Part shown: piece after piece, positions 560 to 4,294 of the stretch | How positions within the stretch are numbered: the stretch's first letter is position 1 | Layout of the letters: the number at the start of each line of letters is the position of its first letter | Virus record (IMG/VR): IMGVR_UViG_3300017706_000970 | Coordinates: 1 to 64,000 of that record | Length of the DNA stretch: 64,000 nt | Origin: a virus | Strand: one strand, 5' to 3' | Translations under genes and position numbers: made by a program | Notes under the pieces: model-generated | What the model saw: the letters and a program-made list of their open reading frames with translations, nothing else | The model's database searches: none | Told to the model about the DNA's origin: nothing

Positions 560-769
560 ATGAACTGTCTCGAATGTGAAAATGAAATTGCTCCTGCACG
601 ACTTGAAGCAATTCCCGATACTGAATATTGTGTTGATTGTGTAGACAAGAACTCAACTCCTACTATTGCTCGTGTGATCTATAGTCACAAGTGCGACAGT
701 GAACTCTTTATCGCAAAGGGTAAGGAGAATGTTCGTCGTCTTGACCGAGAATGGGCCAGGGCAAGATGA
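560..769 (+). CDS. DksA/TraR-type C4 zinc-finger protein (finger only)
   Basis: CLECENEIAPARLEAIPDTEYCVDC fits the CxxCxxxIxxxRLxAxPxxxxCxxC signature. There is no N-terminal DxxDxA coiled coil. Confidence 0.8.
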   Translation: MNCLECENEIAPARLEAIPDTEYCVDCVDKNSTPTIARVIYSHKCDSELFIAKGKENVRRLDREWARAR

Positions 770-1638
770 TCAAAGCCATTTTACCAATTCTGTTTACTAC
801 GGCTGTCTTTGCACAAGAAGTTTGTCCTCCTCGTTACAATAGTTTTGATTGTGACAAGTGGGAAAAAGTAGAAGATAAAATTTGGTACAGGTCATGTACA
901 AGTGAAGTCTTAACCGACGAAGGCGAACTTAAATTCAGCACGACACTGGAGACTTGGAAGGATAAATCCAATCCAGATTTCATCGACGTTGAGGGTATTC
1001 TTACTGTTAAATACCACCAATATGGATGGGCATATTACAACTATGTCCACCGAAGTCAGATGTGTCCATTCCCTTTGACTCAGGTCAGGGGGAATATTTA
1101 TTGGGACTGGGATACTGCCTATGAATGGTACGGACAAAACTCAACAGACGAAGAGTGGGATTTGTACCAAGAAGCGAATGTAAATTTTGGTGATATGCAA
1201 TGGGCCACTAAGAACGGATTCGGTCAGAGTGGAGATTTGTATTTTGGTTGTAGAAAGAAGTATGGTCTAGTTTACAGTGGACCGAACCCAACATTCTCAG
1301 TACGGGACATTGAATTTGACGATAGATTGTGGAGGTATCGTTTTCCGGAAGAAGAGAATGCTATTATTGATTTAGAACCACCACTATCGTTTGATCCCGA
1401 TGATTCGGACAAGAATAATTTTGCGATGAACTTGCGAATTCGCATGAGTGGTAAGCATGTAATCAAAGCAGTAAACGGCGTGATGCTAGATGACGAGAAC
1501 ACAATTCAAATTCCAAACGTAGTACGAATTCGATTCCGTGCTAGGTTTGAAATAATGGATCCTGAGTATTGCCCTGATCAACCAGAACCGCCGGCTCCAG
1601 TGTATGGTGATTCTTCATCTGATGAGATTGCACCATAA
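766..1638 (+). CDS. Secreted hypothetical protein
   Basis: ATG at 766 overlaps the upstream stop. Signal peptide MIKAILPILFTTAVFA|QEVCPPR; Trp/Tyr-rich body; Pro/acidic tail. Confidence 0.75.
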   Translation: MIKAILPILFTTAVFAQEVCPPRYNSFDCDKWEKVEDKIWYRSCTSEVLTDEGELKFSTTLETWKDKSNPDFIDVEGILTVKYHQYGWAYYNYVHRSQMCPFPLTQVRGNIYWDWDTAYEWYGQNSTDEEWDLYQEANVNFGDMQWATKNGFGQSGDLYFGCRKKYGLVYSGPNPTFSVRDIEFDDRLWRYRFPEEENAIIDLEPPLSFDPDDSDKNNFAMNLRIRMSGKHVIKAVNGVMLDDENTIQIPNVVRIRFRARFEIMDPEYCPDQPEPPAPVYGDSSSDEIAP

Positions 1639-1640
1639 CC

Positions 1641-1646
1641 TAAATA
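1641..1646 (+). promoter_or_regulatory. T4-type late promoter candidate (TAAATA)
   Basis: Intergenic CTAAATAG upstream of 1679; the same core precedes structural operons; gp55 and gp33 are encoded in the window. Confidence 0.55.
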
Positions 1647-1678
1647 GGTAAAAAGAGGTTAGCAGTTTACCTCGTAAC

Positions 1679-2785
1679 ATGGAGATTTCAATGAGACTAC
1701 AGTATACTTACGTCGAGAGCGACTGCTACGAATATGATCCTGAACCAACCTACATCGGTGGTGCGCCTCCGATTCGAACCGAGGGTATTCCCGTTGGTTG
1801 GAAGAAGGGTTCTTTTGCCGAACAAGACGGACTAGATCTTTCCTCTTTCAATGTTCGCAATCGCCGATACAACAATAAAGCAGGTAATAACAACCTAAGC
1901 GATATCAACAACTGGAACAGTGGTTACTGGGCAACAGTTTTGATTACACCCAAGCACGCAATTGGTTGCCGTCATTATTGGAGAACTGTTCCTGCACAAG
2001 AACGCAAGCAGCGTTTCATGGGGAAGAGTGGTAAGATCTACTATCCTGAGTGGGAATCAACTACCGAGTTTAATGGTGATCGTATTATCATTACATTCAA
2101 AGAAGAACTACCCGAAGATGTCACGCCAATCGAAGGATGTGATATCGGTTATGTACCAGTCGGTAGCAAGATTTATCAGTTGACGAATCAGGGTATGCTT
2201 CACTACATGTACACTAAGGGTGGTAAGGTTATCACTTACGGCGGCCGCCCCCCTCGTGTCTATGACTTTGAATATGAAGTTGACGACATCATGGGTGAAC
2301 GCCAAGCAATATGGAGTGGAGACTCTGGTACACCCACATTCGTCAAGGACGAACAGAACGACAAACTATACTGGCTTGGAAACAAGTGGGGTGGTTTCCC
2401 TATGTCACAAGACAGTGAATCCGCACAAGAGATTATAGATTTCGTCAAGGGTGCAACCAGCGATAAGCGTCCTACTGGTTACGACTGGAAAGTCGCCCGA
2501 CTTAGTGGTGGAGGAATGGATTACAACAATGATGGTGTAATCGACTCTGCTGATCTCGGACATGTTCTTGCTGCCTTTGGTATGAAGGGAGCAGGTTACT
2601 ATGAACAATTCGATCTCAACGATGACGGTAGAATTGATTCAGGAGACATGGGACAGATTTTTGCTAAGTGGGGCGTAACTGCCGAAATGGTAACTTACGA
2701 TCCAGATAATCCCCCACCACCAGTACAAGAAAGAAAACCTGCAAATCCAAACAAGGATGAATGGGGGTTCGGCGCGTCCGACTAA
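1679..2785 (+). CDS. Trypsin-fold serine protease-like protein with C-terminal dockerin-like domain
   Basis: Candidate triad: LITPKHAIGCRHY (His), GDRIII (Asp), WSGDSGTP (Ser). Paired Ca-loop repeats DYNNDGVIDSADLGHVLAAFG and DLNDDGRIDSGDMGQIFAKWG. SD GGAG also supports an alternative ATG at 1691. Confidence 0.8.
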   Translation: MEISMRLQYTYVESDCYEYDPEPTYIGGAPPIRTEGIPVGWKKGSFAEQDGLDLSSFNVRNRRYNNKAGNNNLSDINNWNSGYWATVLITPKHAIGCRHYWRTVPAQERKQRFMGKSGKIYYPEWESTTEFNGDRIIITFKEELPEDVTPIEGCDIGYVPVGSKIYQLTNQGMLHYMYTKGGKVITYGGRPPRVYDFEYEVDDIMGERQAIWSGDSGTPTFVKDEQNDKLYWLGNKWGGFPMSQDSESAQEIIDFVKGATSDKRPTGYDWKVARLSGGGMDYNNDGVIDSADLGHVLAAFGMKGAGYYEQFDLNDDGRIDSGDMGQIFAKWGVTAEMVTYDPDNPPPPVQERKPANPNKDEWGFGASD

Positions 2786-2788
2786 ATA
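2783..2788 (+). promoter_or_regulatory. T4-type late promoter candidate (TAAATA)
   Basis: ACTAAATATA overlapping the upstream stop, 26 nt before ATG 2815. Confidence 0.55.
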
Positions 2789-2814
2789 TAAAGGCAAAGA
2801 ATAAGGAGAATATT

Positions 2815-3105
2815 ATGCCTACAGTAACGACAACTACAGAGCCCAAACCGGGAGTGAAGTCCACCGAGTTTTGGGCAGCATTAACCATTGGAGGGCTTCC
2901 GTTAATTGAACAACTCGGTTGGTTCAAGAATTGGCCTACTACCGAGGGTGGTGAAATTGCAATGTGGTCAATCGCAGGTGCAGTTGTTTGCTCGTACATT
3001 TGGAGTCGAGCATGGGTAAAGGTAAGAGGGAAAGGAGAATTTGATGAGATTAAAACTATTAACAGCAACGCTACTTCTAGCAAGTCCGGCAGTCGCACAG
3101 GATGA
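2815..3105 (+). CDS. Small two-helix membrane protein (holin-like)
   Basis: SD AAGGAG before ATG 2815; KPGVKSTEFW motif then two hydrophobic segments ending YIWSR. Holin role is inferred only. Confidence 0.6.
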   Translation: MPTVTTTTEPKPGVKSTEFWAALTIGGLPLIEQLGWFKNWPTTEGGEIAMWSIAGAVVCSYIWSRAWVKVRGKGEFDEIKTINSNATSSKSGSRTG

Positions 3106-3838
3106 ATTGGTATGTCCACCAAGACTGATTCCAATGATGTCTGTCAGTCTACCAGACGACACCGGTAAAATCATTACCGTGTCCGAAGTAGAAAACGACA
3201 CTAGAAAAATTGTCGCGGATTACGAAACACTTGATCGAGGAACGATCGGTGCATTTCCTATGGATGGGAGTATTGATTGGACAAACAATTCGGCAGAAAG
3301 AAGAAGGTTAAAGTATCGTCAGTCTATTCTGGTTGACGAGGGTATCATGCCTATTATTCCTCCGGGATTTGATGAGGTATGTTGGGAACCTTCTACTCGA
3401 AGACTGATTACAGTTTACGAACAAGTTCTAGAACCCGGCGAAAGTTTAACAACGCCAATTTTCTGGGAAATCACAACACGACTGGAAGGTCAAATTGCAG
3501 ATGTTAACGGCGATGGTTGGGTTGATGCTCAGGATCAAGGATTGGTCTTGGGAGCATTTGGAACTGATAATCCTCTGTACGATCTCAATCAAGATGGTAT
3601 TGTCGATGGTGCAGATCTCGCAATCGTCTTGAGTCAGTGGTCTGAGTCCTTCGATGATGTTATCGAAGCAAACGCTGGAGGCGGAGGTGGTCCAATTGAT
3701 CCACCAGTTGAAATCGTTTACAACGAAGATTGGAAAGGGGCAAATGAAATTTTTGCTCTAACTCTAAATGAAGTTCCCAACGACAATACTCGGGAAGGAC
3801 ACTTCATAATCCCAAAAGCGATTTGGCGGTTGACCTGA
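3044..3838 (+). CDS. Secreted dockerin-like-domain protein (short, 0-frame product)
   Basis: SD AAGGAG; signal peptide MRLKLLTATLLLASPAVA|QDELVCPPR; dockerin pair ADVNGDGWVDAQDQGLVLGAFG and DLNQDGIVDGADLAIVLSQW; poly-Gly linker. Confidence 0.85.
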   Translation: MRLKLLTATLLLASPAVAQDELVCPPRLIPMMSVSLPDDTGKIITVSEVENDTRKIVADYETLDRGTIGAFPMDGSIDWTNNSAERRRLKYRQSILVDEGIMPIIPPGFDEVCWEPSTRRLITVYEQVLEPGESLTTPIFWEITTRLEGQIADVNGDGWVDAQDQGLVLGAFGTDNPLYDLNQDGIVDGADLAIVLSQWSESFDDVIEANAGGGGGPIDPPVEIVYNEDWKGANEIFALTLNEVPNDNTREGHFIIPKAIWRLT

Positions 3839-3892
3839 TTCGAGGATCATTCGGTGTCGCAGACGACACCGGATCCGGTGGACCAGCCGCCA
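3811..3892 (+). promoter_or_regulatory. Programmed -1 ribosomal frameshift signal (slippery heptamer plus structured stimulator)
   Basis: In-frame C CCA AAA (3811-3817), 6-nt spacer, then a 9-bp stem 3824-3832/3884-3892 enclosing hairpins 3836-3849 and 3850-3873. Confidence 0.75.
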
Positions 3893-4230
3893 TCTCAGCA
3901 TCGACTTACGGGTATCAGTCAGTTAATTTAGATCATGATACAATGTCAGTAGATGAGTGGGTTGCAGCAAATCCAGATGCAGTTTGGATTGTTGAAATGT
4001 ACAGAGATGGTGAATTGATAGGAACGGTTGCAACAGATTCCTCGAACGTAAGTGGAAGGGATCAAGTACAACCAGCAGATGGATCCAGACAATACGGAAC
4101 TGGAATCTGGTGGTCAGCATTGGTTCCTCCTTCGGAATTTGAAGTAGGTGATAAGTGGATAGTGTATGGGTGGGCAAGCCCGGCAGAACAGGCTTTCTTG
4201 CCACCGTATCCGCCTGATAGATTCTATTGA
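3817..4230 (+). CDS. -1 frame C-terminal extension of the dockerin protein (137 aa)
   Basis: Frame is open 3772-4230. The TTG at 3823 has no SD. The frame is -1 relative to 3044-3838. Confidence 0.7.
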   Translation, partial: SDLAVDLIRGSFGVADDTGSGGPAAISASTYGYQSVNLDHDTMSVDEWVAANPDAVWIVEMYRDGELIGTVATDSSNVSGRDQVQPADGSRQYGTGIWWSALVPPSEFEVGDKWIVYGWASPAEQAFLPPYPPDRFY

Positions 4231-4254
4231 AGTAAGCATTCAAAAAGCACTTCT

Positions 4255-4294
4255 GGGGCAGGTTATGGGCATTTGCTTGTAACCTGCCCCTTTT
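4255..4294 (+). terminator. Intrinsic terminator closing the dockerin locus
   Basis: GGGGCAGGTTA..TAACCTGCCCC 11-bp stem followed by TTTT. Confidence 0.75.

Follow-up and report, generated by a model that had tools for sequence, protein, structure and literature searches.

Why should a T4-like phage carry, in one row, genes for exported proteins, a protease and dockerin modules, and where would their products act? The question is raised by positions 766–4294 of IMG/VR virus record IMGVR_UViG_3300017706_000970, which we analysed within the first 64 kb of that record (64,000 nucleotides, hereafter the window). The record as a whole has 88,995 bp and an estimated completeness of 49%, and its matches in PHROGs (gp32, baseplate hub and wedge, large terminase, tail sheath, portal, major head protein and helicase) are those of a T4-like myovirus. 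The block consists of five plus-strand frames, here called p1 to p5 (751/766–1638, 1679/1691–2785, 2761/2815–3105, 3041/3044–3838 and the open −1 frame 3817–4230), and is closed by a strong terminator (Table 1). A first-pass annotation had described it as a co-oriented, terminated block with TAAATA motifs at 1641 and 2783, coding for a signal-peptide protein, a protease–dockerin, a small membrane protein and a signal-peptide dockerin protein with a frameshift extension. All the elements of this description are present: the frames share one strand and end at the 16-bp stem of the terminator, both motifs are present in the form CTAAATA, and each predicted product was recovered, the small membrane protein with a reservation given below. 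We hold the anatomy of the cassette, as described here, with high confidence. Our reading of the whole, function included, is that this uncultured T4-like phage uses the block as a late accessory cassette to deliver proteins of its own to the envelope of the host cell; it is a tentative proposal that falls a little short of an even chance.

Table 1. Sequence features of the p1–p5 block and its upstream neighbour, in window coordinates.
Feature	Position	Strand	Remarks
DksA/TraR-type C4 zinc-finger gene, upstream neighbour	560–769	+	Pfam zf-dskA_traR, 34.1 bits (cut-off 24.9); phrog_54
p1, predicted exported ORFan, 290 amino acids (aa)	766–1638	+	Predicted signal peptide MIKAILPILFTTAVFA; mature N-end QEVCPPR; six Cys
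CTAAATA, T4 late-promoter-like	1640–1646	+	50 nucleotides (nt) 5′ of p2 start
p2, probable chymotrypsin-fold serine protease with C-terminal dockerin/EF-hand pair	1691–2785	+	Protease at about residues 85–265; dockerin DNA 2516–2650; Pro-rich tail
CTAAATA, T4 late-promoter-like	2782–2788	+	32 nt 5′ of p3 start
p3, 96 aa, two moderately hydrophobic segments, basic hydrophilic C-tail	2815–3105	+	End overlaps p4 start by about 60 nt
p4, 0-frame product, 264 aa	3044–3838	+	Predicted signal peptide 3044–3097; beta-sandwich N-domain, invariant Cys24/Cys113; dockerin 3497–3628; Gly/Pro linker; first strands of C-domain
Slippery heptamer C_CCA_AAA, predicted −1 ribosomal frameshift	3811–3817	+	Seven codons before 0-frame stop; 0 frame ATC CCA AAA, phase X_XXY_YYZ
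p5, −1-frame extension, 137 codons	3817–4230	+	Completes C-terminal beta-domain; conserved YPP(D/S)R tail
Candidate frameshift-stimulating structure	3824–3892	+	Closing stem TGGCGGTTG/CAGCCGCCA; spacer of 6 nt after heptamer
Intrinsic terminator	4255–4300	+	Stem-loop 4255–4290: 16-bp stem, 9 G–C pairs, 4-nt loop; T tract, tail TTTTATATTT

The best-supported result is that p4 is, very probably, lengthened by a programmed −1 ribosomal frameshift, judging from the comparison of related sequences. No stop codon interrupts the −1 frame between about 3772 and 4230. We compared the window with 13 further viral contigs that carry a p4 gene, which gives a set of 14; L021, which matched in the dockerin only, was left out. 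C_CCA_AAA lies at the same position in 11 of the 14 contigs (window included), at p4 identities of only 47–63% in most, and C_CCT_TTT replaces it at the same place and in the same phase in two, L013 and L014. Overall, the frameshifted arrangement is found in 13 contigs and a single frame in one, L004. For the candidate stimulating structure, an 80-nt stretch gave a minimum free energy of −37.9 kcal/mol (z −3.76, with none of 200 shuffled sequences as stable). The equivalent stem of L014, TGGCAG/CTGCCA, has a compensating G–C to A–U change (z −2.16), and a consensus fold of ten sequences keeps the stem, mostly via invariant pairs. The single-frame contig L004 is a natural control for the frameshift: its p4–p5 reads through in one frame at 302–1372 and lies upstream of p2, with no p3 in the 300 nt available on the 5′ side. 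Among the phage's own tRNA genes, those for tRNA-Lys(UUU) (7135–7208) and tRNA-Pro(UGG) (9258–9333) encode tRNAs that read exactly the two codons in the slippery heptamer, AAA and CCA.

The extension itself belongs to no Pfam or PHROG family, and an exhaustive HMMER search with p5 found 13 matches in 1.84 billion representatives. The proteins P0065, P0068 and P0071 (349–390 aa) carry a signal peptide, the QEVC motif, the N-domain, the dockerin and the p5 domain in a single frame. Such single-frame homologues run without a gap through the junction (GHWTIPLEDISGE compared with GHFIIPK|SDLAVDL), and BLASTP aligned residues 2–119 of the p5 extension with residues 237–347 of P0065 (E-value 2e-27). 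The extension proposed at first sight is thus a real and conserved one, with its heptamer in phase and colinear single-frame homologues. We modelled the structure on the natural single-frame homologue P0068, using an alignment of p4 and p5 relatives and leaving the phage frames unjoined. The model, with a predicted local distance difference test score (pLDDT) of 77, comprises a beta-sandwich (residues 22–142), two dockerin helices after the loops (154–162 and 181–189) and a second beta-domain (213–347). This C-domain begins before the position equivalent to the frameshift, and therefore the short isoform would end in two orphan strands and only the long isoform would have the whole domain. Two p4 isoforms, a short one of 264 aa and a long one of about 395 aa with a complete C-terminal beta-sandwich, are strongly supported as predictions. 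An independent start for p5 was rejected, the only start codons being TTG or GTG with no usable ribosome site. In two larger proteins, P0069 (991 aa) and P0070 (1832 aa), residues 19–78 of the p5 domain match 6 and 11 repeats, respectively (E-values 8e-7 and 2e-5).

Since the loss of one base in the A run would look identical in a single sequence, an assembly error or a decaying gene had to be weighed as the origin of the p4/p5 frame change, but the number and divergence of the independent sequences make this extremely improbable: the same configuration recurs in 13 contigs from different records, down to 47% protein identity; in the database, p4 homologues of all 47 clusters end after 145–282 aa, so that the 0-frame stop is general and conserved (two of them, P0048 and P0045, come from long contigs of 160,958 and 112,499 bp); the heptamer is switched to another canonical one in a second clade; and p5 is conserved at the protein level.

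Programmed −1 frameshifts are known from lambda G/GT, T7 10A/10B and dnaX. The p4/p5 site resembles these: an X_XXY_YYZ heptamer stands shortly before the upstream frame ends, a downstream structure follows after a spacer of 6 nt, and the isoforms have a common N-terminal part. It differs from them in that the phage product is predicted to be exported and non-structural, whereas theirs are tail chaperones, capsid proteins or polymerase subunits. Moreover, the junction falls inside a predicted folded domain, and in some relatives the long form has become fixed as a single frame. The frameshift is a clean new case of recoding: one site has two canonical heptamers as alternatives, single-frame relatives exist in nature, and the gene codes for a predicted exported accessory protein, outside the usual tail-chaperone or capsid genes.

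What the frameshift would lengthen is a protein whose predicted export is strongly supported. Signal-peptide features (a basic N-end, a hydrophobic core and small residues at −3/−1 before an invariant Gln) are present in 33 of the 34 aligned p4-family proteins; signal peptides were judged throughout by our own heuristic, not by SignalP. Q19, C24, P26 and C113 are invariant in the family, and p4 has neither a lipobox nor a C-terminal membrane segment. The first-pass annotation had recognised a signal-peptide dockerin protein with a frameshift extension here, and p4 passes on all counts: the signal heuristic, Pfam Dockerin_1 at 23.7 bits (cut-off 22.9; 34.9 bits with neighbours in a six-frame scan) and the conserved extension. 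The dockerin of the P0068 model superposes on 2ozn_B (Z 7.8, root-mean-square deviation 1.5 Å, 52 residues) and also matches at least seven other dockerin chains (2vn5_B, 2y3n_D, 2ccl_B, 5nrk_B, 3kcp_A, 3ul4_B and 4dh2_D), which supports the earlier interpretation of the paired loops as dockerin-type modules. The module at the C-end of p2 is less clear-cut: EF-hand_6 reaches 26.7 bits (cut-off 25), whereas Dockerin_1 stays below its cut-off at 15.8 bits. Hence a hidden Markov model search, which had been suggested as a check, bore out the dockerin on p4 and an EF-hand on p2 but not Dockerin_1 on p2 nor any cohesin. PF00404 is nevertheless precomputed on 8 of 12 p2 homologues, and the best PDB profile match of p2 is the dockerin 2y3n_B (E-value 4e-5), with calmodulins next. 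The calcium loops read DYNNDGVIDSAD and DLNDDGRIDSGD in p2 and DVNGDGWVDAQD and DLNQDGIVDGAD in p4, and the two modules are 37% identical (E-value 1.7e-8).

Like the type I dockerins of cellulosomes and of the non-cellulosomal Clostridium perfringens NagH/NagJ (PDB 2ozn), the phage modules have duplicated 12-residue DxNxDGxVDxxD calcium loops with a helix after each, and that of p2 is attached to an enzyme, as in cellulosomal subunits. They differ in being phage-encoded, with no cohesin found in the records searched, and in that the p4 module is internal and not terminal and p2 lacks an export signal. The domains that flank the dockerin in P0068 gave structural matches of lower value: by VIA-align, the N-domain matched sandwiches found at the C-terminus of polysaccharide lyases (Z 6–6.6) and the C-domain TRAF/MATH and similar beta-sandwiches (Z about 5), both values that the tool calls common. 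No cohesin chain is among the best 50 structural matches listed for the C-domain. A Foldseek search of the PDB with the model of the p4–5 type gave no match at E-value ≤ 0.001, and a BFVD search with this type of protein had a single significant match, an unnamed viral protein (1.2e-13). Elsewhere in the window (49648–50139), a very acidic 163-aa protein adjoining the prohead protease gene has a single dockerin/EF-hand-like loop (Dockerin_1 16.8 bits, below cut-off).

The second dockerin-bearing protein, p2, begins within a 368-aa open reading frame (ORF) that opens at 1679; its start was set at 1691 (MRLQYTY) because 10 full-length homologues begin there. D134 and S216 (in GDSGTP) are invariant columns in a 13-row alignment and H94 is kept in all 11 rows that cover it, from which we infer that H94 is the catalytic His. 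The protease–dockerin of the first-pass annotation was confirmed by these residues together with EF-hand_6. As in peptidase S1, the order is His-Asp-Ser with chymotrypsin-like spacings of 40 and 82 residues and a GDSGxP motif. Foldseek returned at least 500 matches at E-value ≤ 0.001, of which the best 50 listed are almost all chymotrypsin-fold (S1-type) proteases with probability 1.00 and template modelling scores of 0.3–0.5, on a weak model (pLDDT 52). The nearest clusters of p2 in the Atlas, a language-model resource, carry the names serine protease or Trypsin.

The small protein p3 is preceded by AAGGAG, and its orthologues of 80–102 aa have AGGAG ribosome sites in nine loci and are 52–90% identical by tblastn among the relatives. 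Its two hydrophobic segments agree with the small membrane protein expected at this place, but they are only moderately hydrophobic, the best 19-residue Kyte–Doolittle window reaching 1.22, below the usual 1.6; p3 likely inserts in the membrane. It has no meaningful Pfam or PHROG family at E-value ≤ 10, holin families included. The first protein of the block, p1, has the signal-peptide layout of the p4 family, in keeping with the signal-peptide protein predicted there, and VCPPR is common to both at the same position. No match to p1 was found in Pfam, PHROGs or NCBIfam, and its homologues form a single cluster, with P0060 at 91%. We rejected p1 as a paralogue of p4 beyond this common N-end, as the similarity detected by BLASTP is the VCPPR pentapeptide only.

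Conservation of the locus in related contigs, another check that had been proposed, showed the genes to be co-located. The core of p3 and p4/p5 is present in 13 of the 14 contigs. p2 is adjacent in nine (the window, L001, L002, L003 with a 2-kb insert, L004, L005, L006, L012 and L015) and absent in four (L011, L013, L014 and L016); L010, with only 62 nt 5′ of p3, was not counted for p2. Across relatives p4 (47–63% identity) diverges faster than p3 or p5. p1 is found in two contigs only, the window and L011, and occupies the place of p2 in the latter. Being outside the conserved set, p1 is a poor candidate for an obligatory dockerin partner; it had initially been named, beside the frameshift domain, as a possible partner. 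Relative to the DksA-like gene, the cassette is on the downstream side in some genomes and on the upstream side in others, and hence lies in a reshuffled accessory region. Its surroundings are tRNA and small genes, and the structural gene cluster is elsewhere.

The timing of the block can be judged from its promoter motifs. TATAAATA is the late-promoter word of T4, and its four sites in the window (25092, 44589, 49615 and 53523) each stand 21–33 nt 5′ of a structural gene start. CTAAATA has 12 sites in the window, seven of them within 80 nt 5′ of listed gene starts, including those of the sheath, the scaffold, p2 and p3. The phage appears to use TATAAATA plus the CTAAATA variant as late-promoter words. 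In relatives, TAAATA is found within 80 nt 5′ of p3 in 5 of the 10 loci checked, with the exact TATAAATA in L010 and L011, and L004 has the exact word 5′ of p2. Late expression of the block is likely because p2 and p3, like the structural genes, have (T/C)TAAATA motifs in front of them. Beyond the terminator, a sigma-70-like promoter with a 12/12 match lies at 4349–4376. Further CTAAATA sites in the window include those at 42693, 50813 and 62787; TAAATA overall is under-represented there (26 observed against about 47 expected), yet concentrated 5′ of gene starts.

We propose the following answer to the question of where these proteins act. p4 and p4–5 would be exported via their Sec signal and their dockerins would fold on calcium once outside. 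The dockerins may then tether p4 or p4–5 to a cohesin-like partner in the host envelope, or to a phage partner encoded outside the fragment. p2, bearing the same dockerin address, would reach the envelope once the membrane is permeabilised or the cell lyses. In the long isoform the C-terminal domain could provide a second binding surface, and the frameshift would fix the ratio of capped to uncapped adaptors. The purpose might be late remodelling of the envelope, so that progeny are released or that receptors on cells and debris are destroyed or masked. What we infer beyond the anatomy is thus the partner, the purpose and the way in which p2 gets there; docking onto an envelope partner for such a purpose is possible, though rather on the doubtful side.

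The nearest described analogue is the 'planctosome', an outer-membrane cohesin–dockerin complex binding dockerin-tagged peptidases that has been proposed for freshwater Phycisphaerae (Andrei et al., 2019; PMC6461901) and that is itself only hypothetical. It shares with the phage a dockerin-tagged peptidase plus an exported, dockerin-bearing, adaptor-like protein, and it differs in that its peptidases are zinc enzymes (M12B and M14) and p2 is a predicted serine protease. Moreover, the best cellular matches of the p4 dockerin include Phycisphaerae, a class with cohesins, whereas p4 has no cohesin or HYR domain and the p2 protease domain was not found in 301 Phycisphaerae genomes. The cellular matches come from a scan with the p4 alignment over one genome per species, with at least 97 confirmed relatives among 600 pattern matches listed. 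Its best 80 cellular loci match in the dockerin only. They comprise 34 in Planctomycetota (24 of Phycisphaerae type, including the first seven rows), 29 in Poribacteria, 10 in Armatimonadota and 7 in others, a tally that depends on the two peptide patterns used, covers the 600 stretches listed and counts loci, not genomes. Cohesin domains score above the cut-off in 22 of 151 sampled Phycisphaerae genomes. A bolder version is that a T4-like lineage hijacks a non-cellulosomal cohesin–dockerin assembly on the host surface, such as has been proposed for Planctomycetota: late in infection it would export an adaptor in two isoforms, at a ratio fixed by the frameshift, and load its protease on the same scaffold for release or receptor destruction. 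In this full form the idea is unlikely.

A number of results weigh against the envelope-directed reading, among them the dependence of that tally on the two patterns. The first-pass annotation had recognised no cohesin in the window, and PF00963 indeed has no match at E-value ≤ 1 even in the whole 88,995-bp record, nor at ≤ 0.1 in any of 10 related records, all 11 being fragments of 15–49% estimated completeness. In these fragmentary records, in contrast to a complete cohesin–dockerin system, no cohesin scaffold was recognised alongside the genes for the dockerin proteins. It is common for dockerin-like modules to have no known cohesin. p2 differs from peptidase S1 in giving no Pfam Trypsin or Trypsin_2 match (PF00089/PF13365) at E-value ≤ 1, in an N-terminal stretch of about 85 residues of no recognised fold, in having no signal peptide or hydrophobic leader, and in its dockerin fusion. 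NCBIfam likewise gave nothing for p2 at E-value ≤ 0.01, its AlphaFold model is poor (pLDDT 52, below 50 in the dockerin region), and the hydrophobic segments of p3 are weak. On the host side, the p2 protease domain was not found in a further four Phycisphaerae genomes besides the 301, and DNA of window 10001–30000 gave nine matches in 401 Phycisphaerae genomes, with E-values of 0.001–0.01, which is chance level; no CRISPR (clustered regularly interspaced short palindromic repeats) array repeats were seen at three inspected loci among the nine. Pfam searches of further window genes gave no host marker. No cultured phage is close, and the matches of the major head protein (54–56% identity) span cyanophages, a pelagiphage and a Stenotrophomonas phage. 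Megablast of window 1–12000 against cultured phages was limited to gp32 (74% DNA identity, Synechococcus phage) and a tRNA-Pro, and tblastn of p2, p4 and p3 against 50,697 phage records found no match.

The main rival, which overlaps the reading we favour, is a lysis cassette. In it, p3 would be a holin of the class II type, through whose lesions p2, as a lytic enzyme of the cytoplasm, would get to the wall or to a protein surface layer; p4/p4–5 would be a periplasmic helper in disrupting the outer layers, a functional analogue of spanins. The order of an enzyme, a small two-segment membrane protein and an exported protein, with late-promoter motifs, fits such a cassette, as do the absence of a signal peptide from p2, as in canonical endolysins, and the holin-like size, two hydrophobic segments and charged C-tail of p3, a class II layout apart from its low hydrophobicity maximum. 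Moreover, no other lysis genes were recognised among the annotated window genes, but only about half of the genome is covered. The nearest named Atlas cluster of p3, Phage_holin_1 at 0.81, is a lead only, this value being at chance level by the tool's own note, and no holin family matched p3 in Pfam or PHROGs even at E-value ≤ 10. p2 is absent from 4 of the 14 contigs while p3 and p4/p5 stay, and is not a recognised muralytic enzyme; trypsin-fold endolysins are not known. Nor does p4 have the lipobox or C-terminal membrane segment that might be sought in such a helper. We consider a lysis cassette unlikely, if the strongest of the alternatives.

Alternatively, the dockerin-like modules may have no cohesin partner at all and work only as calcium-dependent stabilisers or sensors within exported proteins that are otherwise unrelated. 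The lack of cohesin in the 11 phage records speaks for this, as do the EF-hand models, which score as well as Dockerin_1 on p2, the calmodulins close behind in the PDB search, and the rarity of cohesin (those 22 of 151 genomes) among Phycisphaerae despite many dockerin-bearing proteins there. The duplicated two-helix F-hand layout, however, superposes on true dockerins from cohesin complexes, and the occurrence of the same module type in two different phage proteins suggests a shared address, so that we regard modules without a partner as rather unlikely.

Superinfection exclusion or receptor masking, with p3 in the inner membrane and p4/p4–5 in the periplasm or at the surface blocking related phages like Imm and Sp of T4, would account for the pairing of a small two-segment membrane protein with an exported one, for an accessory region whose place and content differ between relatives, and for the faster divergence of p4 than of p3 or p5, as in an arms race. 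Yet the motifs are late and not early, no similarity to exclusion proteins was found in PHROGs (the PADLOC library was not searched), and the protease and dockerin are left without a role, which makes this explanation improbable.

The proteins might instead decorate virions, with dockerin proteins on capsids or tails and the frameshift adding an accessory beta-domain. The late motifs are common to structural genes, and there are known structural proteins to which a −1 frameshift adds a beta-domain at the C-terminus. Fraser et al. in 2006 reportedly described Ig-like (immunoglobulin-like) domains in structural proteins of phages. There is a weak resemblance of the C-domain model to vertex domains of PRD1 P5 and to TNF/TRAF-type domains, but the Z scores of 4.7–5.7 are in the range that the tool calls common; BFVD matches include tail proteins with non-significant E-values, and the acidic protein next to the prohead protease gene has its one dockerin-like loop. 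Against this, tailed-phage assembly is cytoplasmic, whereas export is indicated by the signal peptide in nearly all p4 homologues and by their conserved Cys pair; nor is the block part of the structural gene cluster, and no cohesin-like module was found in structural proteins. Decoration is hence highly improbable.

Our search of the literature brought up no publication on dockerin proteins of this type in phages, no viral use of cohesin–dockerin docking and no programmed frameshift in an exported non-structural phage protein. What appears to be new is the combination of dockerins, an S1-type protease and a −1 frameshift in a conserved phage cassette, each part being well known. If envelope docking is true, viruses would exploit the host's own surface-addressing system, which would give a testable handle on large aquatic phages facing complex envelopes, and the style of the dockerin may help to assign hosts of uncultured T4-like phages.

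Some features of the neighbourhood deserve mention. Nine tRNA genes follow the block at 4827–9333, all of them for tRNAs that decode A/U-ending codons, and this preference suggests a host of higher G+C content than the phage (about 41%). Amid them, 5417–6025 encodes a DUF1281_C (Api92-like ferredoxin-fold) protein and 6601–6975 a DUF4406 or nucleoside deoxyribosyltransferase-like protein. On the minus strand, 10931–12328 is a 465-aa ORF of higher local G+C content that has no PHROG, Pfam or NCBIfam family, and several weak, short DNA matches to Phycisphaerae genomes fall in it (window 11565–11859). Finally, at the edge of the baseplate gene cluster, the ORF at 13196–13744 has a TnsA-like endonuclease N-terminal domain (76 bits) and partly overlaps the minus-strand T4_baseplate gene at 12526–13356.

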